Positions 12,270 to 37,035 of a DNA stretch of 64,000 nucleotides are shown piece by piece (position 1 is the stretch's first letter; each line of letters starts with the position of its first letter). Position numbers and translations under genes: made by a program. The DNA lies in NCBI GenBank assembly GCA_965243605.1, contig CBDEVQ010000092.1, forward strand, positions 48,208 through 112,207. Reading direction: 5' to 3'. The notes under the pieces are model-generated. The model saw only the letters and a list, made by a program, of their open reading frames with translations, was not told the origin of the DNA and made no database searches. Source of the stretch: Flavobacteriales bacterium (lineage in GTDB: Bacteria > Bacteroidota > Bacteroidia > Flavobacteriales > CAJXXR01).

Positions 12270-12286
12270 TTAACAATTAGAGCGTT

Positions 12287-14182: not shown

Positions 14183-14199
14183 TTAACAATTAGAGCGTT

Positions 14200-16113: not shown

Positions 16114-16126
16114 TAATTAAAACGTT

Positions 16127-18097: not shown

Positions 18098-18410
18098 GTG
18101 ATTCTCGATACATTTTTATTTCTCTGTCGTTCAATAAAACCACTCGAACAGACAGATTAAAAACAATAGTCGTTAAAATCACTCTAATGTTTGAGTTATA
18201 GTAGACATTCAGCGTGATTCTCGATACATTTTTATTTCTCTGTCGTTCAATAAAACCACTCGAACAGACAGATTAAAAACAATAGTCGTTAAAATCGCTC
18301 TAATGTTTGAGTTATAGTAGACATTCAGCGTGATTCTCGATACACTTTTATTTCTTTGTGGTTCAATAAAACTACTCGAATCGACAGGTAGTTGAAAACT
18401 AGACTTAGCC
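18098..18410. repeat. 116-bp direct tandem repeat: two near-identical units, a diverged partial third unit, and a degenerate partial unit just upstream
   Basis: The unit start gtgattctcgataca recurs at 18098, 18214 and 18330, giving a 116-bp period. Units 1 and 2 differ at one base that I saw (atcActc versus atcGctc). Each unit holds the hairpin CTGTCGTTC-aataaaaccactc-GAACaGACAG. Confidence 0.9.
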
Positions 18411-21500: not shown

Positions 21501-23949
21501 AGGAACCATAACAAGTAATTGTGATGCGCCTTGGCTAGGGATAGATGTATTCGGTCATGAAGAGTTAAACCAAACTGCTGCCAGCGGACAAGGTGAAGTT
21601 GTACTCAAAAACAATGCCCGAATAGAATATGCTGTAGATGGTGTTGCCTTAATTGGGCATACTCAAAATGGAGACATTGCCTGGGGAACATCAGGAGGGA
21701 TTTTGTTAGCCGAAAACACAACCTTTTATAATTGTAGACGAGGTATAGAATTTATGGCATATACCAACTATAATACAACCTATACGCAAGAGCGAAGAAA
21801 TAAAGGCGTTATAAATAATTGTACGTTTCAATTTACCGATGCGTTTAATGACCTATATGGATACAATACCTATGGAGAACATTATATACCGGTAGGAATA
21901 AGCATGTGGGAAGTAGACCGTGTATTGGTAAAAGGATGTACATTTATTAATGAAATGTCAACCTTTAACACAAGCAATTATGTCCATAATAAATACGATG
22001 GTTATGGAATTATTAGCGTAGATGCTTCTCCATTTATACAACCTGTTTATCCACCTGGACCTATGCCTGGATCTGCTACTGATTGGAATAATTTTGAAGG
22101 ATTTGATATTGGAGTATATAAAGTTAATTTAAATGGTGGTACAAGCCCGATTAAAATTAAGGATAACGATTTTAGTGAAAATCGTGCAGGAATCTATATT
22201 GAAAATAGCCCTTTTGCAACGGTGGTGTTAAACGATATTAATGTGCCAAATTTAAACTTCGGATCAACAACCGAAGAAATAAATGCTGTAGGTTTGTATT
22301 TAACAGGAGCATCTAATTTTGAAGTGGAAGACAATACCTTTATCGGAAATGGCGCTTCATCTACCCACCATGATGGGGGATTGGTTATCGAAAACAGCTA
22401 TGCAACGGGCCCTCATAACGAAACCGTTTATAACAATGCATTTGATGATTTAGGATTTGGATTTTTAGCCTACGGCGAAAATGGAGATACCTATAACGAT
22501 AATGGCGTACCAACGTCTCGTGGATTAGAAATGGGATGTAATGATTTTGGACAAAATGATAACAATTATCAAGATTGGTATATCCATAATGGAGCATCTA
22601 TAAGCCCTGTACAAGGTTCAGGAAGTACACCAACAGGAAACCGTTTTTCAGATGACCCAATCACAACAGACAACCACGGACATATTTTTATTGGTGGTAC
22701 TTTTGAAATTACCGAGTATTTCCGTTTTGATCCCTATGAACATGACCCATCTGAATCTGATAATGCAAAAGTAGCCGTTACAAATACAGGGGCTTCATAC
22801 TCAGAAAGTCAAAGCTGTTCGTCTAACTTTGCATTAAGTGAGGATATTACCGAAGGAGATTTAAATAATCATTTTTCAGATCATGAACTTTTGAAATATA
22901 AACTATTTCAATTAAAAACGAGTTATAAAAACATTTTAAATGGAGGGGTTAAACCTGAAATTATGGATGTGTTACTGGATGCAAACAAAACCTCTCAAGA
23001 AGTAAGAGATGAACTTGTTAATGGGTCTCCCTATTTGGAAGATGAGGTATTAATTGCCGCCATTAAAAGAGAAATTCCACTAACCCAATGGCACTTAACC
23101 GAAATTTTGGTTTGGAATTCTCGATTAAGCAGGGCGGTTATGAGTGCTTTATATGAAGCTCAACCATTAACGCCATATCAATATAATTTGGTTGTAAATG
23201 CAGACAATGGTTCTCAACGATTATTGCTTGAAATGGATATTCACGAAAAACAAATGGAGTTAGCAAGATTAAAATCTGACCATGTGTTAAAAGCATGGAA
23301 TAATGAGGATATTAACTTCTATGATGAAGTGATTAAAGTCTATAACAATGAAGAAACCGAATTTGCTGTAGGGCAATGTATAGAGGCTGAATTGTCAAAT
23401 AAAAACTATACAGGAGCAACATCTCGATTAAATACCTTTATGGGGTCGAATTCAAATGCAGATTTTCAAACCTTTTATGATTTCAAGATTAACTTAAAAC
23501 AAAGTGGTCGTAATTGGTTTCAATTATCTGATAATGAATTAAGAACTTTAGATGATTTACAGGCAAGTAATAATTCGTTTATTGCTCCTAAAGTAGAAAA
23601 CATTAAACGTTTTATTAGTGGAGATAATCAAACCTTTACGCCATTACCAATAGACTTAACACAGCCACAAACTAAAAAAGCCTATGTTGGTAAACCATCA
23701 GATGAATCCTTTGAGAATATCCTTGAAGTGAAATATCTAAGTGGAGAACAAGCTCTAATGTTTATTAGTACAAAGCCTGGAGCGAGATTTACTATTGTAA
23801 ATGCACTTGGTCAGGTTGTAGAAACTGGAGAAATGGCAAATGCTGTTGAATACAAAGATGTATCTTACTTACAATCTGGAGTATATCATATCCGATTAAC
23901 CTCGGATGAAGTAAATAAAACACAACACGATAAATTTGTTGTTCGATAA
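18529..23949 (+). CDS. 1806-aa secreted protein between the two array blocks: glycoside-hydrolase-like N-terminal region (DUF4874/DUF4832-like), beta-helix region, T9SS CTD
   Basis: Signal peptide MKIKKELILMLCFVMGSTHSIAQ. NPERGL near the N-terminus, and later DHLGYRLELQNLETEIQGNNLTAKFHIQNKGFSAPKNPRQIYAVLLDE, which is DUF4832-like as I recall that family. PbH1-like coils follow (TLTITGTLKMPQGTKIQVLEGGKLIVNGGTITS...). The C-terminus is FTIVNALGQVVETGE...VSYLQSGVYHIRLTSDEVNKTQHDKFVVR. Confidence 0.8.
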   Translation: MKIKKELILMLCFVMGSTHSIAQTSTTLSYNGSDEVIKNPERGLSYKAGYVDLFVDGYSYDGAVSYQWTHEFPNTANTTPPSFISRFRKDAGNHIQELPIGYQFKSTAPDGLITVDSDLDLPLQGNDELQISFPNPMNSSYDNSSDLVIIHYTDNTANSRTVKYKAFPSGVAGNYNGGYGDFVAPGNNTIFSKINIRNISGIGGQIQSFYVFQNDNIAGNAPIEIDMNEPVILELRSDIEAFTINHIDRSGVLENRIECSSPHIEQAADQLNNFEVRTELSYNQIPLDISTGSLSTPFGNQITYNNSNHSLNITDAFFDAQTYQQASNNNIELDQCYIEENGISLVELEEYIHFSEDNITASSPQYQLETASVNRTNNAFNQIKNHGLKAHQVTNSDFKMTANNHIYNVPDDEHFTYLQNIMDETNTEIYSGNNSLIALNTLGWIKDQEDASLYRLSPTWLKTSKDKHYLHSGQDAYYGEFLPNEENTLRSSHQRSLFRYSAAASNPNFTGNGFNSSGIAADVNIQHYQETVMKKVKNYFPNKKMLTDMVVAWEHKFTYPQNGGTYDDAGEDEFDVNPNLGYYDDMFATTYEYLGTICDEPQFHSVSTDFTSDGKKDLFVLGKYSDNFWMHADMPLYFDDATFGQSFGAMSSNWTNNGQFDYEALKGMLTASDEEQNPFLAAKKLFRFNYTSFDVTYNNSETIGKNIFEFVEPNGNGAIDKWKSTAITQADADQYQLPYSTGYFTHDNKSVFDYIRDHLGYRLELQNLETEIQGNNLTAKFHIQNKGFSAPKNPRQIYAVLLDEQGQQVQQLPVNIDANEWLSWTTDANLDIKKNDINGTNYTDYTLEDDFDPINYNTHTVQATFDMSGLTTYATYSIALWMPDPSADLNTASNQVDYAVKLANRPISIGARGENIVASFKRGVNQMNLPSKYISANTLIINQNATWASLIEHNRNITIPNGRTLTITGTLKMPQGTKIQVLEGGKLIVNGGTITSNCDAPWLGIDVFGHEELNQTAASGQGEVVLKNNARIEYAVDGVALIGHTQNGDIAWGTSGGILLAENTTFYNCRRGIEFMAYTNYNTTYTQERRNKGVINNCTFQFTDAFNDLYGYNTYGEHYIPVGISMWEVDRVLVKGCTFINEMSTFNTSNYVHNKYDGYGIISVDASPFIQPVYPPGPMPGSATDWNNFEGFDIGVYKVNLNGGTSPIKIKDNDFSENRAGIYIENSPFATVVLNDINVPNLNFGSTTEEINAVGLYLTGASNFEVEDNTFIGNGASSTHHDGGLVIENSYATGPHNETVYNNAFDDLGFGFLAYGENGDTYNDNGVPTSRGLEMGCNDFGQNDNNYQDWYIHNGASISPVQGSGSTPTGNRFSDDPITTDNHGHIFIGGTFEITEYFRFDPYEHDPSESDNAKVAVTNTGASYSESQSCSSNFALSEDITEGDLNNHFSDHELLKYKLFQLKTSYKNILNGGVKPEIMDVLLDANKTSQEVRDELVNGSPYLEDEVLIAAIKREIPLTQWHLTEILVWNSRLSRAVMSALYEAQPLTPYQYNLVVNADNGSQRLLLEMDIHEKQMELARLKSDHVLKAWNNEDINFYDEVIKVYNNEETEFAVGQCIEAELSNKNYTGATSRLNTFMGSNSNADFQTFYDFKINLKQSGRNWFQLSDNELRTLDDLQASNNSFIAPKVENIKRFISGDNQTFTPLPIDLTQPQTKKAYVGKPSDESFENILEVKYLSGEQALMFISTKPGARFTIVNALGQVVETGEMANAVEYKDVSYLQSGVYHIRLTSDEVNKTQHDKFVVR

Positions 23950-23963: not shown

Positions 23964-24010
23964 GTAAGCCCAAGGTGTTTAAAACCTTGGGCTTACCTAT
24001 TTATTTATAA
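23964..24010 (+). terminator. Rho-independent terminator after the 1806-aa gene
   Basis: GTAAGCCCAAGGT-gtttaaa-ACCTTGGGCTTAC gives a 13-bp perfect stem, followed by ctatttatttat. Confidence 0.75.
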
Positions 24011-24034: not shown

Positions 24035-25948
24035 ATGAAATACCTTAATGTGTATAATTTTATATATTGTTTGTTTTTTACGCTCACACTAACAGGGCAA
24101 ACTATTACGGTTCAGAATTTAGATGATTCAGGAATCGGTTCTCTGCGTGATGCTATTGATATAGCAAACTCAGGCGACACTATACGTTTTAATCCAATGT
24201 TACTATCGCAAGGGAGTGATACTTTAGTTCTAGATACTGTTATTAATATTGATAAGGATTTAGTAATAAAAGGGCTTTATGATGATGAGGATACTTTGTT
24301 TTTGTCTGCTATTGATGACCAGATGATGTTTTCTATAGATAGTGTTGAAAATATAGTTATGGATAGTTTGACTTTTGATATTGGCTCAATAAATACTTTT
24401 ACCAATTACGATTTCTTTTGGGTGCGAAATTCAAATATACAAATGTATAATTCAATGTTTTTAGGGTATAGAGATGAGGTTTTAACTTTTTGGCAATCAT
24501 CTTTAGAGATATTAAATTGTAAATTTACTAGTGGAAATAGTTTATTTCCGAGTTCTGTTATTATATTTTTAACAAATGGAGATGTGTCAAGACAGTTTAG
24601 AGTTGTTAATTCTGAGTTTAGATTTAATAATCCTCTTACTTCTGCAGTTATCATTAAAACAGGTGGCAATAAAAATAATAACCATATTTATTTTGAAAAT
24701 AATTATTTCTCTAATATAGGTACTTTAGTTTATGGTCATAATATGATTGATATTTTTAATAGCACCTATGAAAATGCTCATATACAAACAGGAGAGCCTT
24801 CTGTAGGATTTGCTTACATTAGAGACATTACATTAAATATAGAATCTTCAACTTTTACAATTAATGATGTTAATCAAGTACAAAACACCATTTTATGCAT
24901 AGGAACTCCTTATGGACCTATTGAGCCTGTTCCTCTAGATGTTCTTGAGTTAAATTTCACAAATTGTACGTTTAATGGAGGGATATATGTAGATACCGTT
25001 TATAATAACTTTTATGATAGTAATTATTTGGATTATTTCGGTCCAGATTTAGATGAGTTAAAAATAACAAGTTGTATTTTTAATGATATTAACGGATTTA
25101 ATGAATTACCTATAGACACTTCAGGTGGATATAATCTATTTAGTTTCCCTCAAAATATAGGTTTAGATTCTACAGACCAAGCTGATATTTTGGTTTCAGA
25201 TATTAATTTAGGATCATTACAAAACAACGGAGGGTCTACACCTACGCATTTACCAAGTTTTCAATCTTTAGCCTTTAACTCTGGTAATCCAAACGATACA
25301 AGCTCTGCTCAAAATGGGGATATTGTTCAACGTAGAGATATAGGAGCTGCTGAAATACAAGCTGTATTAACAGTTGATACTACAGAATACTGTGGAGAAA
25401 CTTATCAATGGAGAGAAGAAATACTGACGGAATCTAATATTCATTTTGACGTGCAAGAATCAACTACAGGAGGATATGATAGTGTTTTTGTTCTGGACTT
25501 AACTTTAGATTACATTGATGCTATTGCCATTAGTGATGGAGGGGAATTAAAAGCAAATATTTCTGATGCAACGTATCAGTGGATAGACTGCTCAACCAAT
25601 CAACCTTTATTCGGAGAAACGAATCAGGTTTTAACACCAAGTACAGAGGGAATCTATGCTGTTATTGTTTCAAGTTCTATTTGTACAGACACATCAAGTT
25701 GTGTGTATATTAATAATATAGGGTTAGAAGAGCAAGAGAAACACTTTGTATTTGTAAAAGATAAAATACTCTATTTAAATAATGTTAATAGCTATACCGA
25801 ATATAGTGTTTATAATAACTTAGGGCAAATCGTGTTTAAATTCAATACAGTAAAAAAACAACAGGATATAACTCATTTAAATTCAGGTGTGTATTTTATT
25901 GAGTTTAAAGATGAGAATATTCAACCAGTGAAATTTATTTTGGATTAA
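24035..25948 (+). CDS. Array copy B1, first gene of block B (signal b, core class IV, CTD beta)
   Basis: 637 aa. The signal MKYLNVYNFIYCLFFTLTLTGQ is unique to this copy. The core is essentially identical to B3. The CTD is ...YSVYNNLGQIVFKFNTVKKQQDITHLNSGVYFIEFKDENIQPVKFILD. Confidence 0.9.
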   Translation: MKYLNVYNFIYCLFFTLTLTGQTITVQNLDDSGIGSLRDAIDIANSGDTIRFNPMLLSQGSDTLVLDTVINIDKDLVIKGLYDDEDTLFLSAIDDQMMFSIDSVENIVMDSLTFDIGSINTFTNYDFFWVRNSNIQMYNSMFLGYRDEVLTFWQSSLEILNCKFTSGNSLFPSSVIIFLTNGDVSRQFRVVNSEFRFNNPLTSAVIIKTGGNKNNNHIYFENNYFSNIGTLVYGHNMIDIFNSTYENAHIQTGEPSVGFAYIRDITLNIESSTFTINDVNQVQNTILCIGTPYGPIEPVPLDVLELNFTNCTFNGGIYVDTVYNNFYDSNYLDYFGPDLDELKITSCIFNDINGFNELPIDTSGGYNLFSFPQNIGLDSTDQADILVSDINLGSLQNNGGSTPTHLPSFQSLAFNSGNPNDTSSAQNGDIVQRRDIGAAEIQAVLTVDTTEYCGETYQWREEILTESNIHFDVQESTTGGYDSVFVLDLTLDYIDAIAISDGGELKANISDATYQWIDCSTNQPLFGETNQVLTPSTEGIYAVIVSSSICTDTSSCVYINNIGLEEQEKHFVFVKDKILYLNNVNSYTEYSVYNNLGQIVFKFNTVKKQQDITHLNSGVYFIEFKDENIQPVKFILD

Positions 25949-25988
25949 CAACAACTATTCATTTTTAAATTATATAAACCTAAACCGT

Positions 25989-27872
25989 ATGACAAGGGTT
26001 ATTAAATCTATTAGTTTTATATGTTGTTTGTTTCTTACGCTCACACTAACAGGACAAACCATAACCGTTCAGAATTTAGACGATTCAGGAATAGGTTCTC
26101 TGCGTAATGCTATTTCTAATGCCAATTCAGGCGATACCATACGTTTTAATCCCATGTTAATTGCTCAAGGGAGTGATACTTTGGTACTAGATACAGTAAT
26201 AAATATTGATAAAGATTTAGTGATTAAAGGTATTTACGATAATCAAGATACTTTATTCATGTCGATAAAGAATGACAAGCTATTATTTGCTGTAGATTCT
26301 GTAAACGAAATAGTCTTTGATAGTTTAGTATTAATTTCCGATTCTAATTCAGTAATATACCCTTGGGGAACAAGTGCAATAGCTTTGAGTTATGTTAATT
26401 GTCAAATAAATAATTCATTATTTCTTGAGTTTACAAATAATCATATTTATTCGTGGGAATCCAATTTAAAAGTTAATAATTGTAATTTTTCTCATTATCA
26501 CCCTTATTCTAGTTTAATTTTTTTTGATACCTCAGGGGACTCAATTCAGAACTTGGAATTATCGAATGTAAATGTTAAGAGTTATACTAATCTAAGTTTT
26601 GGATTTGCTATGAGAACAGAAACATCAACTCAACTAGAAAAAATTAATATATTCTTTAAAAATTCTTATTTAAAGAATACAAAATCTTATTTTAATGGAA
26701 ATATAAACATTGATATTCTCAATAGTACTTTTGAAAATTCAATAATGGAATTAGGAGCTGAATATACTTCATCAGAAGCAACAGATTCAAAAATTATAGC
26801 AGAGATACAACAATCTACATTTACGGGAGATGTTAATGGAAATACTATTTTATGTTTAGAGCCTCAAACAACAACACCTCTTTTGATTGATTTTAAATTA
26901 AGATTGAATAATTGTACATTCAATGGAGGGAGTTATGATACAGAATCTTCCATTGATTATTTTGGAGAAAGTATAGATTCATTAAGTATAACAAGTTGCA
27001 TATTTAATGATATTAACGGATTTAACGAATTACCTATAGATTCATCAGGAGGATATAATCTATTTAGCTTTCCTCAAAGTATAGGCTTAGATTCTACAGA
27101 CCAAACCAATGTTTTGGTTTCAGATATTAATTTAGAACCACTACAAAACAACGGAGGATTTACACCTACGCATGTACCAAGTTATCAATCTTTAGCTTTT
27201 AACTCCGGTAATCCAAACGATACAAGTTTTGCTCAAAATGGAGCTATTATTCAACGTAGAGATATTGGAGCTGCTGAAATACAAGCTACTCTTACCATAG
27301 ACACTGTAGAGTATTGTGGAGAAGACTACGATTGGAGAAATGAAACACTTACGGAATCTAATATACACTTTGATGTTCAGGAATCTACCACAGGAGGATA
27401 TGATAGTGTTTTTGCTTTAGATTTAACCTTAGATTACATGGATGCTCTAGCCATTAGTGATGGGGGAGCCTTACAGGCCAATATTTCTGATGCAACATAC
27501 CAATGGATGGATTGTTTAACCCATTTACCATTGTTTGGCGAAACCAACCAAACCCTTACACCCAGTATAGCGGGAACCTATGCCGTTGTTGTTTCTAACG
27601 GAATTTGTACCGATACTTCGGCCTGTGTATTTATCGATAATTTGAGTGTGGAAGAGCAGGTGCAATCATTTGTATTTGTAAAGAATAATGTTTTGTATTT
27701 TAACGGGTTAGAAAATGCAGAGTTTAACATCTATAATAGCCTTGGGCAGAATGTTTTAAGCGGCAATGTAAAATTCGGAGAAATAAACCTTTCAAACTTC
27801 CCAAATGGACTGTATAGCATTCAATTTAAAAATGCCACTATGGTTAGATCTATAAAATTTGTATTAAATTAA
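25989..27872 (+). CDS. Array copy B2 (signal c, core class VI, unique and most divergent, CTD alpha)
   Basis: 627 aa. Signal MTRVIKSISFICCLFLTLTLTGQ, shared with B5. The core has no close partner in the window. DYFGESIDSLSITSCIFNDINGF is shared only with B6. Confidence 0.9.
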   Translation: MTRVIKSISFICCLFLTLTLTGQTITVQNLDDSGIGSLRNAISNANSGDTIRFNPMLIAQGSDTLVLDTVINIDKDLVIKGIYDNQDTLFMSIKNDKLLFAVDSVNEIVFDSLVLISDSNSVIYPWGTSAIALSYVNCQINNSLFLEFTNNHIYSWESNLKVNNCNFSHYHPYSSLIFFDTSGDSIQNLELSNVNVKSYTNLSFGFAMRTETSTQLEKINIFFKNSYLKNTKSYFNGNINIDILNSTFENSIMELGAEYTSSEATDSKIIAEIQQSTFTGDVNGNTILCLEPQTTTPLLIDFKLRLNNCTFNGGSYDTESSIDYFGESIDSLSITSCIFNDINGFNELPIDSSGGYNLFSFPQSIGLDSTDQTNVLVSDINLEPLQNNGGFTPTHVPSYQSLAFNSGNPNDTSFAQNGAIIQRRDIGAAEIQATLTIDTVEYCGEDYDWRNETLTESNIHFDVQESTTGGYDSVFALDLTLDYMDALAISDGGALQANISDATYQWMDCLTHLPLFGETNQTLTPSIAGTYAVVVSNGICTDTSACVFIDNLSVEEQVQSFVFVKNNVLYFNGLENAEFNIYNSLGQNVLSGNVKFGEINLSNFPNGLYSIQFKNATMVRSIKFVLN

Positions 27873-27885
27873 TAATTAAAACGTT

Positions 27886-29799
27886 ATGAGAATACTAACC
27901 ATATTAAGTTATTTATTTTGTTTATGTATTAGTTTTAATGGGAATAGCCAAACCATCACGGTTCAGAATTTAGACGATTCTGGGGTTGGCTCTTTACGTG
28001 ATGCTATTTCTAATGCCAATTCAGGCGATACTATACGTTTTAATCCAATGTTACTATCGCAAGGGAGTGATACTTTAGTTCTAGATACTGTTATTAATAT
28101 TGATAAGGATTTAGTAATAAAAGGGCTTTATGATGATGAGGATACTTTGTTTTTGTCTGCTATTGATGACCAGATGATGTTTTCTATAGATAGTGTTGAA
28201 AATATAGTTATGGATAGTTTGACTTTTGATATTGGCTCAATAAATACTTTTACCAATTACGATTTCTTTTGGGTGCGAAATTCAAATATACAAATGTATA
28301 ATTCAATGTTTTTAGGGTATAGAGATGAGGTTTTAACTTTTTGGCAATCATCTTTAGAGATATTAAATTGTAAATTTACTAGTGGAAATAGTTTATTTCC
28401 GAGTTCTGTTATTATATTTTTAACAAATGGAGATGTGTCAAGACAGTTTAGAGTTGTTAATTCTGAGTTTAGATTTAATAATCCTCTTACTTCTGCAGTT
28501 ATCATTAAAACAGGTGGCAATAAAAATAATAACCATATTTATTTTGAAAATAATTATTTCTCTAATATAGGTACTTTAGTTTATGGTCATAATATGATTG
28601 ATATTTTTAATAGCACCTATGAAAATGCTCATATACAAACAGGAGAGCCTTCTGTAGGATTTGCTTACATTAGAGACATTACATTAAATATAGAATCTTC
28701 AACTTTTACAATTAATGATGTTAATCAAGTACAAAACACCATTTTATGCATAGGAACGCCTTATGGACCTATTGAGCCTGTTCCTCTAGATGTTCTTGAG
28801 TTAAATTTCACAAATTGTACGTTTAATGGAGGGATATATGTAGATACCGTTTATAATAACTTTTATGATAGTAATTATTTGGATTATTTCGGTCCAGATT
28901 TAGATGAGTTAAAAATAACAAGTTGTATTTTTAATGATATTAACGGATTTAATGAATTACCTATAGACACTTCAGGTGGATATAATCTATTTAGCTTTCC
29001 TCAAAGTATAGGCTTAGATTCTACAGACCTAACCAATGTTTTGGTTTCAGATATTAATTTAGAACCACTACAAAACAACGGAGGATTTACACCTACGCAT
29101 GTACCAAGTTATCAATCTTTAGCTTTTAACTCCGGTAATCCAAACGATACAAGTTTTGCTCAAAATGGAGCTATTATTCAACGTAGAGATATTGGAGCTG
29201 CTGAAATACAAGCTACTCTTACCATAGACACTGTAGAGTATTGTGGAGAAGACTACGATTGGAGAAATGAAACACTTACGGAATCTAATATACACTTTGA
29301 TGTTCAGGAATCTACCACAGGAGGATATGATAGTGTTTTTGTTCTGGATTTAACTTTAGATTACATTGATGCTATAGCCATTAGCGATGGTGGAGCCTTA
29401 CAAGCCAATATTTCTGATGCAACATACCAATGGATGGATTGTTCAACCCATTTACCATTGTTTGGCGAAACCAACCAAACCTTTACACCCAGTATAGCGG
29501 GAACCTATGCGGTTGTTGTTTCCAATGGAATTTGTACCGATACTTCGGCCTGTGTATTTATCGATAATTTGAGTGTAGAAGAGCAGGTGCAATCCTTTGT
29601 ATTTGTAAAGAATCATGTTTTGTATTTTAACGGGTTAGAAAATGCAGAGTTTAACATCTATAATAGCCTTGGGCAGAATATTTTAAGCGGCAATGTAAAA
29701 TCCGGAGAAATAGACCTTTCAAACTTCCCAAGTGGACTGTATAGCATTCAATTTAAAGATGCCACTATGGTTAGATCTATAAAATTTGTATTAAATTAA
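27886..29799 (+). CDS. Array copy B3 (signal a, core class IV identical to B1, CTD alpha); a five-piece mosaic
   Basis: 637 aa. Going 5' to 3', it matches A6, then B1, then B2, then B4, then A2/A3 (see findings). Confidence 0.9.
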   Translation: MRILTILSYLFCLCISFNGNSQTITVQNLDDSGVGSLRDAISNANSGDTIRFNPMLLSQGSDTLVLDTVINIDKDLVIKGLYDDEDTLFLSAIDDQMMFSIDSVENIVMDSLTFDIGSINTFTNYDFFWVRNSNIQMYNSMFLGYRDEVLTFWQSSLEILNCKFTSGNSLFPSSVIIFLTNGDVSRQFRVVNSEFRFNNPLTSAVIIKTGGNKNNNHIYFENNYFSNIGTLVYGHNMIDIFNSTYENAHIQTGEPSVGFAYIRDITLNIESSTFTINDVNQVQNTILCIGTPYGPIEPVPLDVLELNFTNCTFNGGIYVDTVYNNFYDSNYLDYFGPDLDELKITSCIFNDINGFNELPIDTSGGYNLFSFPQSIGLDSTDLTNVLVSDINLEPLQNNGGFTPTHVPSYQSLAFNSGNPNDTSFAQNGAIIQRRDIGAAEIQATLTIDTVEYCGEDYDWRNETLTESNIHFDVQESTTGGYDSVFVLDLTLDYIDAIAISDGGALQANISDATYQWMDCSTHLPLFGETNQTFTPSIAGTYAVVVSNGICTDTSACVFIDNLSVEEQVQSFVFVKNHVLYFNGLENAEFNIYNSLGQNILSGNVKSGEIDLSNFPSGLYSIQFKDATMVRSIKFVLN

Positions 29800-29816
29800 T
29801 TAACAATTAGAGCGTT

Positions 29817-31712
29817 ATGAGAATACTAACCATATTAAGTTATTTATTTTATTTATGTATTAGTTTGAATGGGAATAGCCAAACCATCACGGTTCAGAAT
29901 TTAGACGATTCTGGGGTTGGCTCTTTACGTGATGCTATTTCTAATGCCAATTCAGGTGATACCATCCGTTTTAATCCCATGTTAATTGCTCAAGGGAGTG
30001 ATACTTTAGTATTAGATACAGTGATTAATATTGATAAAGATTTAGTGATAAAAGGGCTTTATGATGATGAGGATACGTTGTTTTTGTCTGTGTCAGACAA
30101 TCAGTCATTCTTCCTTGTTGATACTGTTGAAAGTTTTACACTTGATAGTCTAACTTTTATTTCAGATTCAATTTTCAATGCAAATATTGATTGTTTTAAG
30201 GTATTTGAATCTGGTTTATGCATTGAGAATTCTTCTTTTTTGGGTTTTAAAAAAAATGTATTGTTACTATATCAATCATCTCTTAGGTTTATTAATTCTA
30301 AAATTTTCACATATGATTATTTATCAATGTCTGGTGGAACCCCTCAATATATTTGGTGCTATACGGATGGAAATATCTTAAGAAATTTTGAAATTGTTTC
30401 TAGCGAAATTCAGGCTGGAAATTCAAACGGTTTATATATGACTCTCGGTGGTGTTCAAGACAGTAATAGTGTATTAATTAAAGATACTTATCTTTCTAAT
30501 TTTAGGAGTTGGTTGTTTGGTCATTTTAATTTAAAAATATTAAATAGTACCTTAGAAAACTCATATATTAATATCGGTCATCCTAATATTTCTGGAGGAA
30601 GTTTAGAAAGAAATGCTTTTATTTCGGCTAATGCTTCGACTTTTTCTTTAACTGATTTTGAAGATTTACAAAACCCTATTTCTTGTATCGGTTCACCAAC
30701 AAATCCCTTTGACCCACCTCCCTTAGATGTATTTGAATTACAGTTTGATAACTGTACATTTAATGGGGCTACATATGATAGTAGTTCATATGAAGATTAT
30801 TTCGGTCCCGATTTAGATGAACTAAAAATAACAAGTTGTATTTTTAATGATATTAATGGCTTTAATGAATTACCTATAGACTCATCTGGAGGATATAATC
30901 TATTTAGTTTTCCTCAAAGTATAGGTTTAGATTCTACAGACCAAGCTGATATTTCTGTTTCAGATATTAATTTAGAACCATTACAAAACAATGGAGGGTT
31001 TACGCCTACTCATGTACCAAATTATGAATCATTAGCCTTTAACTCAGGAAATCCAAACGATACAAGCTCTGCCCAAAACGGAGCTATTATTCAACGTAGA
31101 GATATAGGAGCTGCTGAAATACAAGCCGTACTTACTGTAGATACGACTGAATATTGTGGGGAATTTTACGATTGGAGAAATGAAACACTTACGGAATCTA
31201 ATATACACTTTGATGTTCAGGAATCTACCACAGGAGGATATGATAGTGTTTTTGTTCTGGATTTAACTTTAGATTACATTGATGCTATAGCCATTAGTGA
31301 TGGAGGGGAATTAAAAGCCAATATTTCTGATGCAAGCTATCAATGGATAGATTGTTCTACTAATCAACCTTTGTTTGGAGAAACAAATCAGGTTTTAACG
31401 CCAAATACAGAAGGAACCTATGCTGTTATTGTTTCAAGTTCTATTTGTACAGATACATCAAGTTGTGTGTATATTAATAATATAGGGTTAGAAGAGCAAG
31501 AGAAACGCTTTGTATTTGTAAAAGATAAAATACTCTATTTAAATAATGTTAATAGCTATACCGAATATAGTGTTTATAATAACTTAGGGCAAATCGTGTT
31601 TAAATTCAATACAGTAAAAAAACAACAGGATATAACTCATTTAAATTCAGGTGTGTATTTTATTGAGTTTAAAGATGAGAATATTCAACCAGTGAAATTT
31701 ATTTTGGATTAA
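29817..31712 (+). CDS. Array copy B4 (signal a, core class II, CTD beta)
   Basis: 631 aa. The core is homologous to A2. The CTD and the downstream junction are the same as in B1. Confidence 0.9.
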   Translation: MRILTILSYLFYLCISLNGNSQTITVQNLDDSGVGSLRDAISNANSGDTIRFNPMLIAQGSDTLVLDTVINIDKDLVIKGLYDDEDTLFLSVSDNQSFFLVDTVESFTLDSLTFISDSIFNANIDCFKVFESGLCIENSSFLGFKKNVLLLYQSSLRFINSKIFTYDYLSMSGGTPQYIWCYTDGNILRNFEIVSSEIQAGNSNGLYMTLGGVQDSNSVLIKDTYLSNFRSWLFGHFNLKILNSTLENSYINIGHPNISGGSLERNAFISANASTFSLTDFEDLQNPISCIGSPTNPFDPPPLDVFELQFDNCTFNGATYDSSSYEDYFGPDLDELKITSCIFNDINGFNELPIDSSGGYNLFSFPQSIGLDSTDQADISVSDINLEPLQNNGGFTPTHVPNYESLAFNSGNPNDTSSAQNGAIIQRRDIGAAEIQAVLTVDTTEYCGEFYDWRNETLTESNIHFDVQESTTGGYDSVFVLDLTLDYIDAIAISDGGELKANISDASYQWIDCSTNQPLFGETNQVLTPNTEGTYAVIVSSSICTDTSSCVYINNIGLEEQEKRFVFVKDKILYLNNVNSYTEYSVYNNLGQIVFKFNTVKKQQDITHLNSGVYFIEFKDENIQPVKFILD

Positions 31713-31752
31713 CAACAACTATTCATTTTTAAATTATATAAACCTAAACCGT

Positions 31753-33657
31753 ATGACAAGGGTTATTAAATCTATTAGTTTTATATGTTGTTTGTTTCTT
31801 ACGCTCACACTAACAGGACAAACCATAACCGTTCAGAATTTAGATGATTCCGGAACTGGTTCTTTACGTAATGCTATTTCTAATGCCAATTCAGGCGATA
31901 CTATACGTTTTAATCCCATGTTAATTGCTCAAGGGAGTGATACTTTGGTACTAGATACAGTAATAAATATTGATAAAGATTTGGTAATAAAAGGACTTTA
32001 TGATGAGGAAGATACTTTGTTTTTGTCTTCTTTGGAGAATAGAAGTATGTTTTCTATTGATACTGTAGATTATATATTACTTGATAGTCTTTGTTTAGTA
32101 GCTGATACAATCAGTTATAATAATAACTATACTATTAGTTTTGTTTATTCGGATGTTGTTGTTTCAAATTCTTTTTTTAAAGGATATAAAACAACTTTAT
32201 TATATGCTTGGCAATCTTCTTTGAATATTTATGGATGTAGTTTTTATAACGATATAAACACAAATGCATCAATTGTTTTTTTATCAAATGGAGACGAACT
32301 CAGAACTTTGAGTATTATTTCTAGCTTTTTGCAAAACAATAAGACAGGATATAATTTTGATATAAGATTAGCTGGTAATAAAAATAATAATAAAATTACT
32401 TTTGAAGATTCATATTTTAAAGATTCTAAAAGTTGGTTTTTTGGTCATCTATCTACTGACATAACATACTGTACATTTGAAAACTCTCCGTTAAGTTTTG
32501 GACATGAATCATTTGGCGGAGGAACCTTGGAAAGAGATATGACATTACTATGTCTCGGTTCAACATTTTTTATTTCAAATATTGATTATAGGCAAAACTC
32601 TTTCTCTTGTATAGGTACACCAACGAGCCCTTTTGCCCCTCCTCCTTCAGATTTTTTTGAATTACAGTTTAATAATTGTACTTTTAATGGAGGGGTTTAT
32701 ATAGATACAGCTTATGGAAATAATTACGATAGTAATTATTTGGACTACTTCGGACCAGATTTAGATGAGTTAAAAATAACGAGTTGTATTTTCAATGACA
32801 TCAACGGTTTTAATGAATTACCTATAGATTCATCAGGAGGATATAATCTATTTAGTTTTCCTCAAAGTATAGGCTTAGATTCTACAGACCAAGCAAATGT
32901 ATTGGTTTCAGATATTAATTTAGGACAATTACAAAACAACGGAGGATTTACACCAACACACTTACCAGGCTACGAATCTTTAGCGTTTAATGCAGGAAAC
33001 CCTAACGATACCAGTTCGGCTCAAAATGGGGAGATTATACAACGAAGAGATATTGGATCAGCTGAAATACAAGCTATACTTACTGTAGATACTACTGAAT
33101 ATTGTGGCGAATTTTATGATTGGAGAGGGCAAATGTTAACCGAATCAGCTATCTATTCAGATATAGAAGAATCTACAACAGGATTAGATAGTGTTTTTGC
33201 CATAGATTTAACCTTAGAGTATTTAGATGCCCTAGCCATTAGCGATGGAGGCGAATTAACAGCCAATAGTTCTGATGCGACCTACCAATGGATGGATTGT
33301 TCAACCCATTTACCATTGTTTGGTGAAACTAACCAAACCCTTACACCCAGTATAGCGGGAACCTATGCGGTTGTTGTTTCCAATGGAATTTGTACCGATA
33401 CTTCGGCCTGTGTATTTATCGATAATTTGAGTGTAGAAGAGCAGGTGCAATCCTTTGTATTTGTAAAGAATCATGTTTTGTATTTTAACGGGTTAGAAAA
33501 TGCAGAGTTTAACATCTATAATAGCCTTGGGCAGAATATTTTAAGCGGCAATGTAAAATCCGGAGAAATAGACCTTTCAAACTTCCCAAGTGGACTGTAT
33601 AGCATTCAATTTAAAGATGCCACTATGGTTAGATCTATAAAATTTGTATTAAATTAA
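31753..33657 (+). CDS. Array copy B5 (signal c, core class III, CTD alpha)
   Basis: 634 aa. The core is homologous to A3. The segment AILTVDTTEYCGEFYDWRGQMLTESAIYSDIE.STTGLDSVFAIDLTLEYLDALAISDGGELTANSSDATYQW is shared with A6. Confidence 0.9.
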   Translation: MTRVIKSISFICCLFLTLTLTGQTITVQNLDDSGTGSLRNAISNANSGDTIRFNPMLIAQGSDTLVLDTVINIDKDLVIKGLYDEEDTLFLSSLENRSMFSIDTVDYILLDSLCLVADTISYNNNYTISFVYSDVVVSNSFFKGYKTTLLYAWQSSLNIYGCSFYNDINTNASIVFLSNGDELRTLSIISSFLQNNKTGYNFDIRLAGNKNNNKITFEDSYFKDSKSWFFGHLSTDITYCTFENSPLSFGHESFGGGTLERDMTLLCLGSTFFISNIDYRQNSFSCIGTPTSPFAPPPSDFFELQFNNCTFNGGVYIDTAYGNNYDSNYLDYFGPDLDELKITSCIFNDINGFNELPIDSSGGYNLFSFPQSIGLDSTDQANVLVSDINLGQLQNNGGFTPTHLPGYESLAFNAGNPNDTSSAQNGEIIQRRDIGSAEIQAILTVDTTEYCGEFYDWRGQMLTESAIYSDIEESTTGLDSVFAIDLTLEYLDALAISDGGELTANSSDATYQWMDCSTHLPLFGETNQTLTPSIAGTYAVVVSNGICTDTSACVFIDNLSVEEQVQSFVFVKNHVLYFNGLENAEFNIYNSLGQNILSGNVKSGEIDLSNFPSGLYSIQFKDATMVRSIKFVLN

Positions 33658-33674
33658 TTAACAATTAGAGCGTT

Positions 33675-35588
33675 ATGAGAATACTAACCATATTAAGTTA
33701 TTTATTTTGTTTATGTATTAGTTTGAATGGGAATAGCCAAACCATCACGGTTCAGAATTTAGACGATTCTGGGGTTGGCTCTTTACGTGATGCTATTTCT
33801 AATGCCAATTCAGGTGATACCATCCGTTTTAATCCCATGTTAATTGCTCAAGGGAGTGATACTTTAGTATTAGATACAGTGATTAATATTGATAAAGATT
33901 TAGTGATAAATGGGCTTTATGATAGCGAGGATACCTTGTTTATGTCCTCTTTAGAGAATAGAAGAATGTTCCATTTTGATACTGTGGATTATATATTACT
34001 TGATAGCCTTTGTTTGTTAGCAGATACAACGAATGGTTTTAATAATACTATAATAAGTTTTGTTTATTCAGATGTAGTTGTTTCAAATTCTTTTTTTAAA
34101 GAATATAATAAAACTGTTTTAAATTCTTGGCAATCAAATTTAAACATAATAAATAGTTTAATTTCTAGTGATACTTTATATACATTTTATCCTTTAGTTT
34201 ATTCAACTCAAGGTGATACGTTAAGAAAACTAAAAATTATAAAGTCAAAGTTTTTAATAAAGGAAAAGAATACAGTTGGTATAGTAGTTAGAACAGCTGG
34301 AAATAAGGAGAATAATAAGGTGATTATTCAAGATTCATATTTTGAAAATTTTGAAACATTAATATATGGTCATAACACCATGGAGATTCAATATTCAACA
34401 TTTAATAATTCACTAATTAAAACGGGAGAGCCTTATGTGGGGTTTGCATATATTAGAGATATTACATTAACTGTAAAATCTTCAACCTTTGCAATTACAG
34501 ATTCTAATCAAGTCCAAAATACAATTTTATGTATAGGAACACCTTATGGACCTATTGAACCGGTTCCTTTAGATGTTCTTGAGTTAAATTTAACAAATTG
34601 TACGTTTAATGGCGGGATTTACGAAGACGTTATTTATGGAACTGGTTATGATAGTAATTATTTGGATTATTTTGGAGAAAGTATAGATTCATTAAGTATA
34701 ACAAGTTGCATATTTAATGATATTAACGGATTTAATGAATTACCTATAGACTCATCGGGAGGCTATAATCTATTTAGTTTTCCTCAAAATATAGGTTTAG
34801 ATTCTACAGACCAAGCCAGTGTTTTAATCTCTGATATTAATTTGGGATTACTACAAAACAATGGAGGATTTACTCCTACCCATCTACCAAACTATCAATC
34901 ATTAGCCTTTAACTCAGGTAATCCTAACGATACAAGTTTTGCTCAAAATGGAGCTATTATTCAACGTAGAGATATTGGAGCTGCTGAAATACAAGCTACT
35001 CTTACCATAGACACTGTAGAGTATTGTGGAGAAGACTACGATTGGAGAAATGAAACACTTACGGAATCTAATATACACTTTGATGTTCAGGAATCTACCA
35101 CAGGAGGATATGATAGTGTTTTTGTTCTGGATTTAACTTTAGATTACATGGATGCTATAGCCATTAGTGATGGAGGGGAATTAAAAGCTAATATTTCTGA
35201 TGCAACATACCAATGGATGGATTGTTTAACCCATTTACCATTGTTTGGCGAAACCAACCAAACCCTTACACCCAGTATAGCGGGAACCTATGCCGTTGTT
35301 GTTTCTAACGGAATTTGTACCGATACTTCGGCCTGTGTATTTATCGATAATTTGAGTGTGGAAGAGCAGGTGCAATCATTTGTATTTGTAAAGAATAATG
35401 TTTTGTATTTTAAAGGATTTAGTGAGGGTAAAATGGATTATATGATCTTTAATAATTTAGGACAACAGATACTGTACTCAAATACTTCACAGGAAGTACA
35501 AGATCTTTCCTATTTAGAATCAGGGGTTTATTTTATTGAATTTATGAGTAAACAGAATAGAAAGCCAATACAATTTATTATCAACTAA
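33675..35588 (+). CDS. Array copy B6, last gene of block B (signal a, chimeric core III/V, alpha-to-gamma-like hybrid CTD)
   Basis: 637 aa. The core starts like B5/A3 (SSLENRRMFHFDTVDYILLDSLCLLADT...SFVYSDVVVSNSFFK), then switches to the A6 segment. The CTD begins VQSFVFVKNNVLYF as in B2, then ends ...DLSYLESGVYFIEFMSKQNRKPIQFIIN. Confidence 0.9.
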   Translation: MRILTILSYLFCLCISLNGNSQTITVQNLDDSGVGSLRDAISNANSGDTIRFNPMLIAQGSDTLVLDTVINIDKDLVINGLYDSEDTLFMSSLENRRMFHFDTVDYILLDSLCLLADTTNGFNNTIISFVYSDVVVSNSFFKEYNKTVLNSWQSNLNIINSLISSDTLYTFYPLVYSTQGDTLRKLKIIKSKFLIKEKNTVGIVVRTAGNKENNKVIIQDSYFENFETLIYGHNTMEIQYSTFNNSLIKTGEPYVGFAYIRDITLTVKSSTFAITDSNQVQNTILCIGTPYGPIEPVPLDVLELNLTNCTFNGGIYEDVIYGTGYDSNYLDYFGESIDSLSITSCIFNDINGFNELPIDSSGGYNLFSFPQNIGLDSTDQASVLISDINLGLLQNNGGFTPTHLPNYQSLAFNSGNPNDTSFAQNGAIIQRRDIGAAEIQATLTIDTVEYCGEDYDWRNETLTESNIHFDVQESTTGGYDSVFVLDLTLDYMDAIAISDGGELKANISDATYQWMDCLTHLPLFGETNQTLTPSIAGTYAVVVSNGICTDTSACVFIDNLSVEEQVQSFVFVKNNVLYFKGFSEGKMDYMIFNNLGQQILYSNTSQEVQDLSYLESGVYFIEFMSKQNRKPIQFIIN

Positions 35589-35642: not shown

Positions 35643-35654
35643 TAAAATTGATTA

Positions 35655-35662
35655 TATATTTG
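35655..35662 (+). promoter_or_regulatory. Candidate Bacteroidota -7 promoter box (TAnnTTTG) for the Rrf2 gene
   Basis: TATATTTG lies 18 nt upstream of the ATG at 35681. It matches the TAnnTTTG consensus known for Bacteroidota primary-sigma promoters. Confidence 0.3.
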
Positions 35663-35680
35663 TCAACAAATTTAAACACT

Positions 35681-36109
35681 ATGTTTTCTAGATCTTGTGA
35701 ATATGGCTTAAGAGCCGTAATATATATAGCCCAACAATCTAACTTAGGGAATAAGGTAAGCTTAACCAAAATTTCTGAAGAGATTGATTCGCCTCAGGCG
35801 TTTACGGCTAAAATATTACAGCAACTCACAAGAAACAAGATTGTAAAATCGATAAAAGGACCCTATGGTGGCTTTATGATAGAACCCGAAAATATGAATA
35901 CCACTAAGCTAAGCGATGTTGTAGGCGTATTAGATGGCGATAAAATATATACGGGATGTGGTTTAGGTTTAAAACAATGCGATGCCAATTCACCTTGTCC
36001 TTTACATCATAAGTTTATTGAAATAAGAGAGAAACTGCGCGAAATGCTTGAAAGTAACAGTTTAAATGATGTATTAAAAGATATCGATTTAGTTTGGCTA
36101 AAACGATAG
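35681..36109 (+). CDS. Rrf2-family transcriptional regulator, NsrR-like by context
   Basis: MFSRSCEYGLRAVIYIA... is a typical Rrf2 N-terminal wHTH. A three-Cys cluster, CGLGLKQCDANSPC, could ligate Fe-S. The ORF-track start at 35648 is a TTG 11 codons upstream; I prefer the ATG at 35681. The gene sits next to ric and norB. Confidence 0.8.
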   Translation: MFSRSCEYGLRAVIYIAQQSNLGNKVSLTKISEEIDSPQAFTAKILQQLTRNKIVKSIKGPYGGFMIEPENMNTTKLSDVVGVLDGDKIYTGCGLGLKQCDANSPCPLHHKFIEIREKLREMLESNSLNDVLKDIDLVWLKR

Positions 36110-36130
36110 CTTTTTTTTTGCCTAAATTCC

Positions 36131-36155
36131 ATAAAGGATAAAAAGATCCTTTTAT
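36131..36155. promoter_or_regulatory. Candidate Rrf2/NsrR operator upstream of ric (alternatively a weak terminator hairpin of the regulator gene)
   Basis: ATAAAGGAT-aaaaag-ATCCTTTTAT is a palindrome lying 22 nt after the regulator stop and ~100 nt before the ric ATG. Confidence 0.4.
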
Positions 36156-36256
36156 ATTGTTTGAGAGATATCAGGATTAAAAGAAAGAGAGAATAACCAA
36201 AAAAACAAAACATAGATAGGCCTTGGGCTTAAGAATAACTTTTTAAACACAGAACC

Positions 36257-36970
36257 ATGACAATAGATAAAAACACCTTAGTAAGCGAGATTGTTGCCGA
36301 TAACTACAAAGCAGCAAGTGTATTTAAAAGTCATAAAATTGATTTTTGTTGTAACGGAAACCGTCCTTTAGAAACCGTTTGTAAAGGGGACTTAACGGTC
36401 GATGTATTGATCGATGAAATTTTAGAAACTCAAGCTCAAAAAAGTGAGTTGCCTGATTATCAATCTTGGGATATCGGATTTTTATCGGATTATATTTATC
36501 ATAACCACCATACCTATGTAGAGAAGCGCATTCCAGAACTTATGCAATTCCTACATAAAATAAGCCGTGTACATGGCGAAAACCATCCTGAATTAATAGA
36601 AGTATATCGTTTATTTTCTGAAAGTGCCGACGACTTAACCTTACATATGAAAAAAGAAGAACTCATTCTCTTTCCATATTTTAAGCAATTGGCACAAGCA
36701 CAAAAGGAGGGAGGTAAAGTGTCAGCATCTCAATTTCAAACGGTTCAAAGTCCAATTTCTATGATGCACCAAGAACATGATAATGAAGGCGATCGTTTTA
36801 GAAAAATAGCTGAATTAACCAATGACTATACACCACCTGGAGATGCGTGTACAACCTATCGAGTAGCGTTTTTAATGTTACAGGAGTTTGAAGCAGATTT
36901 ACATAAACACATCCATTTAGAGAATAACATTTTATTTAAACGTGCCATTAAATTAGAGCAGAGTTTATAG
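36257..36970 (+). CDS. ric: Iron-sulfur cluster repair di-iron protein (RIC; ScdA/YtfE family)
   Basis: ScdA-type N-terminus DFCCNGNRPLETVC. Hemerythrin-like His/Glu motifs are present (HNHHTYVEKRIPEL, HMKKEELILFP, QEHDNEGD, LHKHIHLENNILF). Confidence 0.85.
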   Translation: MTIDKNTLVSEIVADNYKAASVFKSHKIDFCCNGNRPLETVCKGDLTVDVLIDEILETQAQKSELPDYQSWDIGFLSDYIYHNHHTYVEKRIPELMQFLHKISRVHGENHPELIEVYRLFSESADDLTLHMKKEELILFPYFKQLAQAQKEGGKVSASQFQTVQSPISMMHQEHDNEGDRFRKIAELTNDYTPPGDACTTYRVAFLMLQEFEADLHKHIHLENNILFKRAIKLEQSL

Positions 36971-37035
36971 GTAACACCATGGTCGTGTAAACCGTACACC
37001 ACCATCCGTATCAAAATTAAAACTAAACCTTACAC

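Follow-up and report, generated by a model that had tools for sequence, protein, structure and literature searches.

Pathogens offer well-known examples of gene conversion between paralogous genes for surface proteins. Segmental gene conversion produces mosaic antigens in Borrelia vlsE, Anaplasma msp2 and Neisseria pilE/pilS, and the Neisseria opa genes and the vlhA genes of Mycoplasma gallisepticum are families of complete surface-protein genes (both groups are reviewed in PMC4534519). Flavobacterium psychrophilum carries a 21-kb array of leucine-rich-repeat (LRR) proteins whose copy number is strain-specific (PMC8400371). Tandem families such as this array, opa and vlhA evolve through conversion between their copies and through unequal crossing-over. 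In Porphyromonas gingivalis, cargo of the type IX secretion system (T9SS), namely gingipain and HagA adhesin domains, undergoes domain rearrangement and allelic exchange, which results in mosaics unrelated to the strain phylogeny (PMC5266723). The sequence analysed here is a window of 64,000 nucleotides (nt) on contig CBDEVQ010000092.1 (assembly GCA_965243605.1) of an uncultured, probably environmental Flavobacteriales-like bacterium. It contains two arrays, A and B, of six paralogous genes each, and the third gene of the second array, B3, is a mosaic of its sister copies. To our knowledge, a base-by-base record of conversion is rare in uncultured environmental Bacteroidota.

The two arrays share with the LRR array and with the opa and vlhA families the head-to-tail arrangement of complete cell-surface genes. 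As in F. psychrophilum (PMC8400371), the copy number varies among close relatives, and as in families of the opa/vlhA type (PMC4534519), all copies are potentially expressed and not silent. The locus differs from all of these in that its genes are predicted to encode a beta-helix and a choice-of-anchor-Q region together with a T9SS sorting domain, in that it comprises two arrays, either of them preceded by a giant T9SS gene, and in that the exchange can be followed base by base, also between the arrays. A repeat-tract on/off switch was not seen in the arrays, in a survey that was not aimed at one. P. gingivalis (PMC5266723) belongs to the same phylum, uses the same secretion route and likewise moves domain-sized pieces by homologous recombination. 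However, its genes are dispersed and exchange takes place largely between strains, whereas the donors found here are tandem paralogs within the same 30 kb.

All 12 genes (626-639 codons) lie on the plus strand and thus in direct orientation, separated by spacers of 13, 17 or 40 nt within the two blocks. Every copy is complete, with start codon, leader and sorting domain, and both giant genes as well as 12/12 paralogs are intact open reading frames (ORFs). The encoded proteins have a common layout, which consists of a conserved N-terminal part (amino acids (aa) 23-92), a hypervariable centre (aa 93-335), referred to here as the cassette, and a conserved C-terminal half that ends in one of three tail types. 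Pairwise nucleotide identities within the family have a median of 74.5%, and the longest exact run shared by two copies has a median length of 89 nt. The 12 genes carry 11 distinct cassettes, since B1 and B3 alone have one in common: in the variable core these two are 100% identical, and every other pair is 48-81% identical at the nucleotide level.

The 12 genes were aligned (1974 columns), B3 was compared with each other copy, and a dynamic-programming search was carried out for the cheapest mosaic path through the other 11 copies. This path rebuilds B3 from five copies with 3 mismatches in 1914 nt (pieces 1-5 in Table 1), as compared to 255 mismatches for the closest single donor. Its cost was 19 (3 mismatches plus 4 switches), versus 239±6 with a minimum of 220 in 200 column shuffles. 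Chance is excluded as the source of the B3 mosaic. The path costs of the other eleven copies were 104-403; all 12 copies are mosaic, and B3, which alone is almost completely explained by the others, is the cleanest and most recent case.

The initial annotation had described B3 as a succession of matches to A6, B1, B2, B4 and A2/A3, and all five were found again at the coordinates given there, extended here to the tracts listed in Table 1. The single mismatch reported for the A6-like segment (tttaTgt versus tttaGgt) was located at 27925, where B3 and all other copies have T and only A6 has G, so that it is private to A6. The match to B1 consists of two exact runs, 28030-28757 (728 nt) and 28759-28994 (236 nt), around its one mismatch. 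In the match to B2, the mismatch is private to B3, and the longest exact run is 29031-29341 (311 nt). The 39-mer that had been quoted for the short B4-like tract occurs at 29341 and 31254 only. In the diagnostic core of this tract, B4 does not differ from B3, B6 differs at one site, and B2 and A2/A3 differ at six sites each. From 29375 to the stop codon, B3 is identical to both A2 and A3 (425 nt).

Recombination was apparent in each of the formal tests that were applied, in line with the repeated conversion or crossover among array members that had been proposed from the switches of the best-matching copy. The pairwise homoplasy index (PHI) over 800 parsimony-informative sites was 0.456, versus 0.693±0.003 in 1000 permutations (z = -75, with none as low). 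In a breakpoint test of the 3SEQ type, the maximum descent with B3 as the child of B1 and B2 was 177, compared to a null mean of 7.8 (z about 98), and every other copy was also far above its own null (z 27-101). Fisher tests on 2x2 tables of informative sites gave p = 7e-57 for the junction A6|B1, 2e-68 for B1|B2 (362/0 vs 0/53 sites), 1e-7 for B2|B4 and 1e-32 for B4|A2 (28/0 vs 0/142). Phylogenies of the individual segments were discordant: the neighbour-joining sister of B3 (200 bootstraps) changes along the gene from A6 (82%) to B1 (100%), B2 (100%), a group of B1/B4/B6 and finally A2/A3. Segment trees and a breakpoint test had both been named beforehand as checks on the mosaic, and they yielded neither congruent trees nor a lack of significant breakpoints.

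Table 1. Position of the mosaic gene B3, of its pieces and matching tracts, and of the arrays and giant genes in the window (position 1 is the first nucleotide of the window)
Feature	Position	Strand	Partner or description
B3	27886-29799	+	ORF; mosaic gene, 637 aa, predicted T9SS cargo protein
Piece 1 of cheapest path	27886-28029		A6, 1 mismatch
Piece 2 of cheapest path	28030-28977		B1, 1 mismatch
Piece 3 of cheapest path	28978-29253		B2, 1 mismatch
Piece 4 of cheapest path	29254-29374		B4, 0 mismatches
Piece 5 of cheapest path	29375-29799		A2, 0 mismatches
Tract 1	27776-28031	+	A5|A6 junction 16017-16272, one mismatch at 27925
Tract 2	28030-28994	+	B1 24179-25143, 965 nt, one mismatch at 28758
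Tract 3	28978-29341	+	B2 27051-27414, one B3-private mismatch at 29030 (Q to L)
Tract 4	29254-29384	+	B4 31167-31297, exact, 131 nt; diagnostic core 29342-29374
Tract 5	29375-29850	+	A2|A3 junction 9947-10422 and A3|A4 junction 11845-12320, 476 nt exact
Array A	6542-18040	+	Six full-length paralogs with spacers of 13 or 17 nt; contains the donors of tracts 1 and 5
A1	6542-8461	+	
A2	8479-10371	+	
A3	10389-12269	+	
A4	12287-14182	+	
A5	14200-16113	+	
A6	16127-18040	+	
Array B	24035-35588	+	Six full-length paralogs; contains B3 and the donors of tracts 2-4
B1	24035-25948	+	
B2	25989-27872	+	
B4	29817-31712	+	
B5	31753-33657	+	
B6	33675-35588	+	
Giant gene ahead of block A	123-6008		ORF, 1961 aa
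Giant T9SS gene ahead of block B	18529-23949	+	DUF4832 domain, 1806 aa, between the arrays

The segments had been presented as units within the gene. This holds for the matches as such, but not for the limits of the two outer tracts, as both cross gene borders. Tract 1 takes in the 97 terminal nt of B2, the 13-nt spacer and codons 1-49 of B3, with exact runs at 27776-27924 (= 16017-16165) and 27926-28031 (= 16167-16272, 106 nt), and tract 5 runs from the 3' end of B3 across a 17-nt spacer and 34 nt into B4. Neighbouring tracts overlap at the four junctions in windows of 2 nt (28030-28031), 17 nt (28978-28994), 88 nt (29254-29341) and 10 nt (29375-29384). Tract 2 (aa 49-370) carries the whole hypervariable beta-helix cassette.

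The assignment of donors is firm for some pieces and less so for others. Inside the gene, A6 is supported as the donor of piece 1 by two sites, 27936 (found in A6 only) and 28026 (which excludes A4, B4 and B6), and over this segment A4 and B6 are only one difference worse than A6. Piece 1 is thus weakly resolved within the gene, and the better evidence for a relation to A5/A6 is the 13-nt spacer variant TAATTAAAACGTT, which is present at A5|A6 and B2|B3 only. For piece 4, a B6-like origin with one mismatch is equally possible; the exact run of B6 in B3 extends over 29143-29366 (224 nt). In the core of tract 4, B2 and A2/A3 have the same six differences from B3, which means that B2 itself switches to A2-like sequence at 29342. 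Pieces 3 and 4 may therefore have come as a single piece from an earlier form of B2, in which the 3' part was replaced afterwards. The number five is a minimum path count through the extant copies and not the number of events.

Exchange between the two blocks, which was also part of the initial annotation, is borne out by tract 5, whose 476 nt are found unchanged at junctions in block A, and by the spacer in tract 1, which is otherwise specific to block A. The block A partners of tract 5 are 17-19 kb away, and the next-best copy in block B over the whole tract, B2, has about 19 differences. A single crossover between an A and a B copy would remove or double the 6-kb gene that separates the blocks, and the inter-block tracts thus need conversion or a double crossover.

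We consider it quite probable that B3 is a real and recent recombinant that arose by non-reciprocal homologous recombination (gene conversion) among full-length paralogs. Tracts from other copies would have been copied into the B3 position with the gene order left unchanged. By what is established for homologous recombination in bacteria, a break or gap within or close to B3 would have been repaired on paralogous templates, probably in a RecA-dependent manner, and the conserved 5' and 3' parts of the genes would supply the homology. The hypervariable beta-helix cassette would move as a unit in this process, which in B3 would have placed the B1 cassette behind an A6-type leader and before an A2/A3-type C-terminal half. 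The pieces may have been acquired in one repair event with several template switches or in three to four separate events close in time. Tract 4 (33-131 nt, with other donors on either side) would represent a conversion patch or a template switch.

Synonymous sites provide information on the age of the transfer. Between paralogs, the median synonymous divergence (dS) amounts to 0.53 for the conserved N-terminal part, 0.67 for the conserved C-terminal half and 1.2 for the cassette, and the respective medians of the nonsynonymous divergence (dN) are 0.04, 0.08 and 0.55. Conservation of the flanks is largely due to purifying selection on the protein, and the dN/dS of the variable region is 0.42, not above 1. 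The B3 tracts of 131-965 nt have 0-1 difference each and are 99.7-100% identical to their partners, synonymous sites included. Purifying selection as the cause of this identity was rejected, since the synonymous divergence of the paralogs is high even in the conserved parts. With so few differences between otherwise old and diverged paralogs, the tracts are recent copies. With only three differences in all (27925 in A6; 28758; 29030 in B3), the pieces may have arrived jointly or in quick succession.

B3 appears to be the recipient in these transfers, because each partner tract ends where the next one begins, and a single junction in B3 explains each of these coincidences. All partner copies keep the shared tracts, and the order and number of the units around B3 are regular. 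The transfer into B3 was thus non-reciprocal in the sense that the donors are retained and the gene order is unchanged; strict reciprocity could be judged only with the ancestor sequence. The end tracts are family-wide sequence types and not specific to B3: the tract 5 sequence from 29483 on is common to A4, A5 and B5, and the tract 1 sequence is found in A4, B4 and B6 within 1-3 mismatches. We also considered the reverse direction, in which B3 is an old intact copy that gave five parts separately to A6, B1, B2, B4/B6 and A2/A3. Near-identity alone is without direction, and the number of events would be similar (five versus three to four). However, tracts received independently by different copies would then need to end at the same places, to within 2, 17 and 10 nt. 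The sequences of tracts 1 and 5 occur in further copies as types common to the family, and the 3SEQ-type test makes B3 the child of B1 and B2. We thus regard the reverse direction as highly improbable.

Related contigs were used to follow the history of the arrays. In a metagenome assembly from the European Nucleotide Archive (contigs L001/L023), a single paralog is located between the DUF4832 giant gene and a set of Rrf2/ScdA/NorB genes, and the same arrangement is found in a second relative for which independent Joint Genome Institute (JGI) and Logan assemblies are available (L020/L021). In their flanking genes, both relatives have an identity of 88-93% with the window. Contig L022, which is more distant, contains the giant gene and one copy, followed by a different gene. 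The position of array B is hence occupied by six genes in the window and by one in the relatives. The 5' end of the relatives' single gene is closest to the 5' end of B1 (83-84%), and its 3' end is closest to that of B6 (93%). This identifies the array ends as positional orthologs and indicates that the copy number was changed by unequal exchange, in either direction.

Cassette replacement can be seen directly in these two relatives. L001 and L020 are 96.6% identical overall, and their single genes (7980-9872 in L001, 3304-5205 in L020) have 0-4 differences per 60 nt outside the cassette tract; only in the cassette tract of ~540 nt do 30-50% of the positions differ. The L020 cassette is ~98% identical to that of A4 in the window, which exceeds the 91-93% of the flanking housekeeping genes, whereas the remainder of the L020 gene is ~85% identical to A4. 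Cassette replacement is ongoing in the lineage, and this observation is independent of the window assembly. It suggests that a cassette pool is common to several lineages. The short-read (k127) contig L001 starts just upstream of its last array A copy (region 1-2122), which has a cassette of the B1/B3/A5 type (85%) and a tail of the A6 type (93%). The same cassette type is therefore present at different array positions in different lineages. The start of the contig at this point fits an assembly break at an unresolved array.

Several further features of the arrays themselves were recorded. With respect to the tails, the terminal copies A6 (...KFIIK) and B6 (...QFIIN) have a type of their own, B1 and B4 have a second and the other eight copies a third, and the tails of the terminal copies (17650-18040 and 35420-35588) match those of the corresponding genes in the relatives at 93%. 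The array ends escape homogenisation. The 3' halves are most strongly homogenised in block A. An exact repeat of 952 nt, the longest in the arrays, comprises the 3' half of A2, the spacer and the beginning of A3 (9505-10456), which recur as the corresponding part of A3 and A4 (11403-12354); A4 and A5 have ~940 nt in common with 3 mismatches. In block B, the B1|B2 and B4|B5 junctions are identical over 337 nt (25744-26080 and 31508-31844), including the 40-nt spacer and a distinct leader, MTRVIKSISF..., that is found in B2 and B5 only; this identity hints at a multi-unit duplication within block B. Directly upstream of A1 there is a 134-nt relic (6408-6541), made up of the last ~117 nt of a paralog 3' end and a 17-nt spacer, which is 98.5% identical to the A2|A3 and A3|A4 junctions. 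It may be a trace of a lost upstream copy or of an expansion phase of the array. The remainder of the intergenic region (6009-6407) matches nothing.

Since unequal exchange has changed the copy number, unequal crossing-over between misaligned units, with duplication or deletion of units, has to be considered as the source of the hybrid gene in place of conversion. The six genes versus one at the position of array B, the B1-like 5' end and B6-like 3' end of the relatives' gene, the 337-nt junction identity, as expected after a multi-unit duplication, and the relic upstream of A1 are all compatible with such events. However, a single crossover leaves one junction and alters the order or number of the units, and the arrangement B1-B2-[B1/B2 hybrid] is not the product of one crossover between B1 and B2. 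The block A tracts cannot be obtained by a single crossover without losing or doubling the 6-kb gene, and tract 4, a stretch of 33-131 nt between pieces from other donors, looks as a conversion patch typically does. An explanation by one unequal crossover alone was thus rejected on the geometry of its product, though unequal crossover has clearly shaped the copy number, and we give very little credence to crossing-over as the process that made B3.

Some points weigh against gene conversion into B3 as we have described it. The window at junction 1 is just 2 nt, which fits the end of a conversion tract but offers no microhomology. Junction 3 (B2 to B4) is located within 88 nt that are common to both donors, and it has no private k-mer below about k = 89. 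The direction and the number of events are arguments of parsimony only, and any use of the variation is putative. Furthermore, the exact B3 protein has been recorded just once, on a contig of 135,358 bp (a cluster with one member), and the presence of the four junctions in cis rests on a single assembly. A scan of genome contigs with B3 found no independent copy, a scan with an alignment of the 12 proteins found only relatives of <=50% identity, and two scans of metagenome contigs did not find a relative.

The last of these points raises the possibility of an artefact of assembly or consensus, in which paralogous sequence was stitched together or overwritten by the assembler or by polishing with multi-mapping reads, and B3 is not one molecule. 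The contig is metagenome-derived, the exact repeats of up to 952 nt in the array are hard to phase, and short reads could not link junctions 1 and 2 across the 728 + 236 nt that are identical to B1. The short-read assembly of the relative L001, which starts inside the last array A copy as if broken at an unresolved array, is compatible with this. On the other hand, B3-private 21-mers span junctions 1, 2 and 4 as well as the mismatch sites 28758 and 29030. These must derive from real reads, so that the three junctions are present in the reads whatever the phasing. A chimera generated as a path through a De Bruijn graph was rejected on this basis for junctions 1, 2 and 4; for junction 3 it is not excluded below k of about 89. 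The 12 genes and both giant genes are intact ORFs, and a contig assembled across many repeats of 300-950 nt was probably built from long reads or with strong linkage, which should be able to span a gene of 1.9 kb. In addition, all other copies are mosaic as well, and cassette replacement was seen independently between two other assemblies. We thus consider an artefact to be quite unlikely; the phasing of the junctions across the long B1-identical tract, and junction 3, are possible weak points of the assembly.

The proteins of the family are predicted to be T9SS cargo, composed of a beta-helix, a choice-of-anchor-Q region, Ig-like domains and a type A C-terminal sorting domain. B3 matches the NCBIfam model choice_anch_Q (NF041518) with 31.4 bits at aa 389-442, and B2 matches it with 31.6 bits (cut-off 25). 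The T9SS type A sorting domain (Por_Secre_tail, TIGR04183) was found in B3 with 26.7 bits at aa 578-636 (cut-off 23) and in B2 also above the cut-off; the Pfam model PF18962 gave 22.1 bits on B3, below its cut-off of 27. At the N-terminus, B3 has a hydrophobic stretch, MRILTILSYLFCLCISFNG, that is modelled as a helix (aa 2-17) and represents a putative signal peptide.

An AlphaFold2 model of B3 had a mean predicted local distance difference test (pLDDT) score of 72. It shows stacked short strands at aa 22-350, with pLDDT mostly 80-95, followed by a low-confidence part (aa 354-448), Ig-like sandwiches (aa 450-560) and a C-terminal sandwich. According to this model, aa 22-350 form a predicted right-handed beta-helix. 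The top Foldseek matches in the PDB were alginate and pectate lyases, polygalacturonases, phage tailspikes and the PfbA adhesin, all of them weak (E about 1e-3, TM 0.2-0.4), and the C-terminal domain of RgpB was among the matches, also weakly. A sequence search of solved structures gave only weak matches, to the C-terminal domain. No Pfam beta-helix repeat was above threshold on B3 itself, and distant homologs in Flavobacteriales and other Bacteroidota match Pfam PF02415 (Chlam_PMP repeat) and PF13229 (Beta_helix). As the B1-derived piece corresponds to aa 49-370, it carries the whole predicted beta-helix, and B3 is thus the B1 helix combined with another leader and another C-terminal half. 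The chlamydial Pmp proteins are beta-helix surface adhesins that are encoded in paralogous clusters and exported through an autotransporter barrel. They resemble the present family in the two Pfam repeats found on its distant homologs, in the predicted right-handed beta-helix and in being a large paralogous surface family, but B3 is below the Pfam thresholds for the repeats, and its export is predicted to proceed by the T9SS.

The conserved flanks and hypervariable centre of these genes, with 11 cassettes in 12 genes, have a cassette-like layout, and the cassette of an orthologous gene differs between near-identical strains. Both properties would be expected if variation were programmed and frequent, as it is in pilE/pilS, vlsE or msp2, and if B3 were an expression site fed by donor cassettes. 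As in vlsE and pilE (PMC4534519), the recipient combines longer and shorter pieces from several donors, with lengths between tens and hundreds of bases, and the junctions lie in short common stretches. However, the described systems have one expression site, promoterless or truncated donors and high-frequency switching, and some of them have dedicated cis elements. Here, all 12 copies are complete ORFs with no truncated silent cassette among them, and every copy is a recipient with a multi-donor path, so that transfer is not unidirectional into one locus. No G-quadruplex (G4) motif is present on either strand in 6000-36400, no recombinase gene adjoins the arrays (the only transposase, of the IS3 type, is 22 kb away), and the variable-region dN/dS given above does not favour a programmed system. 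The locus works like segmental conversion but fails the defining features of vlsE, msp2 and pilE, which are the single expression site and the defective donors. We consider a programmed system unlikely, and there is no sign of a dedicated variation system.

Three specific mechanisms were rejected individually. G4-triggered recombination as at pilE was dismissed for want of the motif in the region scanned. A diversity-generating retroelement was discarded because there is no reverse transcriptase among the scanned ORFs and the cassettes differ by 20-50% with indels and at all bases, not at adenines only. An invertase or shufflon does not agree with the direct orientation of all copies and the lack of a recombinase beside the arrays.

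The surroundings of the arrays were also inspected. The gap between A6 and the DUF4832 giant gene contains a non-coding stretch (18098-18387) in which a 116-nt unit is repeated 2.5 times (95% matches). A strong terminator-like hairpin (23964-23996) with a 13-bp stem, 7 G-C pairs and a T-rich tail is located between the stop codon of the giant gene and the start of B1. Terminator-like sites were found neither inside array B nor in the scanned part of array A, its last ~540 nt. Array B may be a separate transcription unit that is read as an operon. A sigma-70 promoter scan gave 100 sites versus 103.5 expected; this consensus is not the promoter type of Bacteroidota, which is known to differ from it. 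Directly 3' of array B (35648-39252) lie genes for an Rrf2-family regulator, an ScdA/hemerythrin iron-sulfur repair protein and the quinol-type nitric oxide reductase NorB. These three genes form a set for nitrosative stress, and it is conserved in the relatives. A further large protein (51173-54775, 1200 aa) has a Beta_helix Pfam match, and the IS3-type transposase (57816-58682; rve, HTH_21) is located 3 kb beyond it. As far as tested, neither has a relation to the arrays.

B3 is an unusually complete instance of a known process and does not imply a new mechanism. It is a clean case in that the recombinant and all donors are still present within 30 kb. The locus combines exchange between arrays that are 17-19 kb apart, a one-to-six difference in copy number and cassette replacement in near-identical strains. 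Because short-read assemblies reduce such arrays to one gene or end their contigs there, the diversity of the arrays is undercounted in most metagenome-assembled genomes.

T9SS cargo proteins of Bacteroidota serve in adhesion, gliding and polymer use, and they are likely phage receptors. New combinations of leader, cassette and tail may be selectively useful for a cell-surface protein of this kind. A more far-reaching idea, which we put forward only as a speculation and hold to be doubtful at present, is that the arrays serve a free-living Flavobacteriales lineage as a permanent library from which versions of a T9SS surface protein are combined. In such a library, leaders and tails would act as recombination handles, and the 11 cassette types would be moved between expressed positions, arrays and strains at an ecologically relevant rate, with B3 as a fresh variant. 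The cassette swap between L001 and L020 and the 98% identity of the L020 and A4 cassettes would then be traces of a shared cassette pool. If this were true, the library could allow, for example, escape from phages or grazers, or switching of the specificity of polysaccharide or surface binding.

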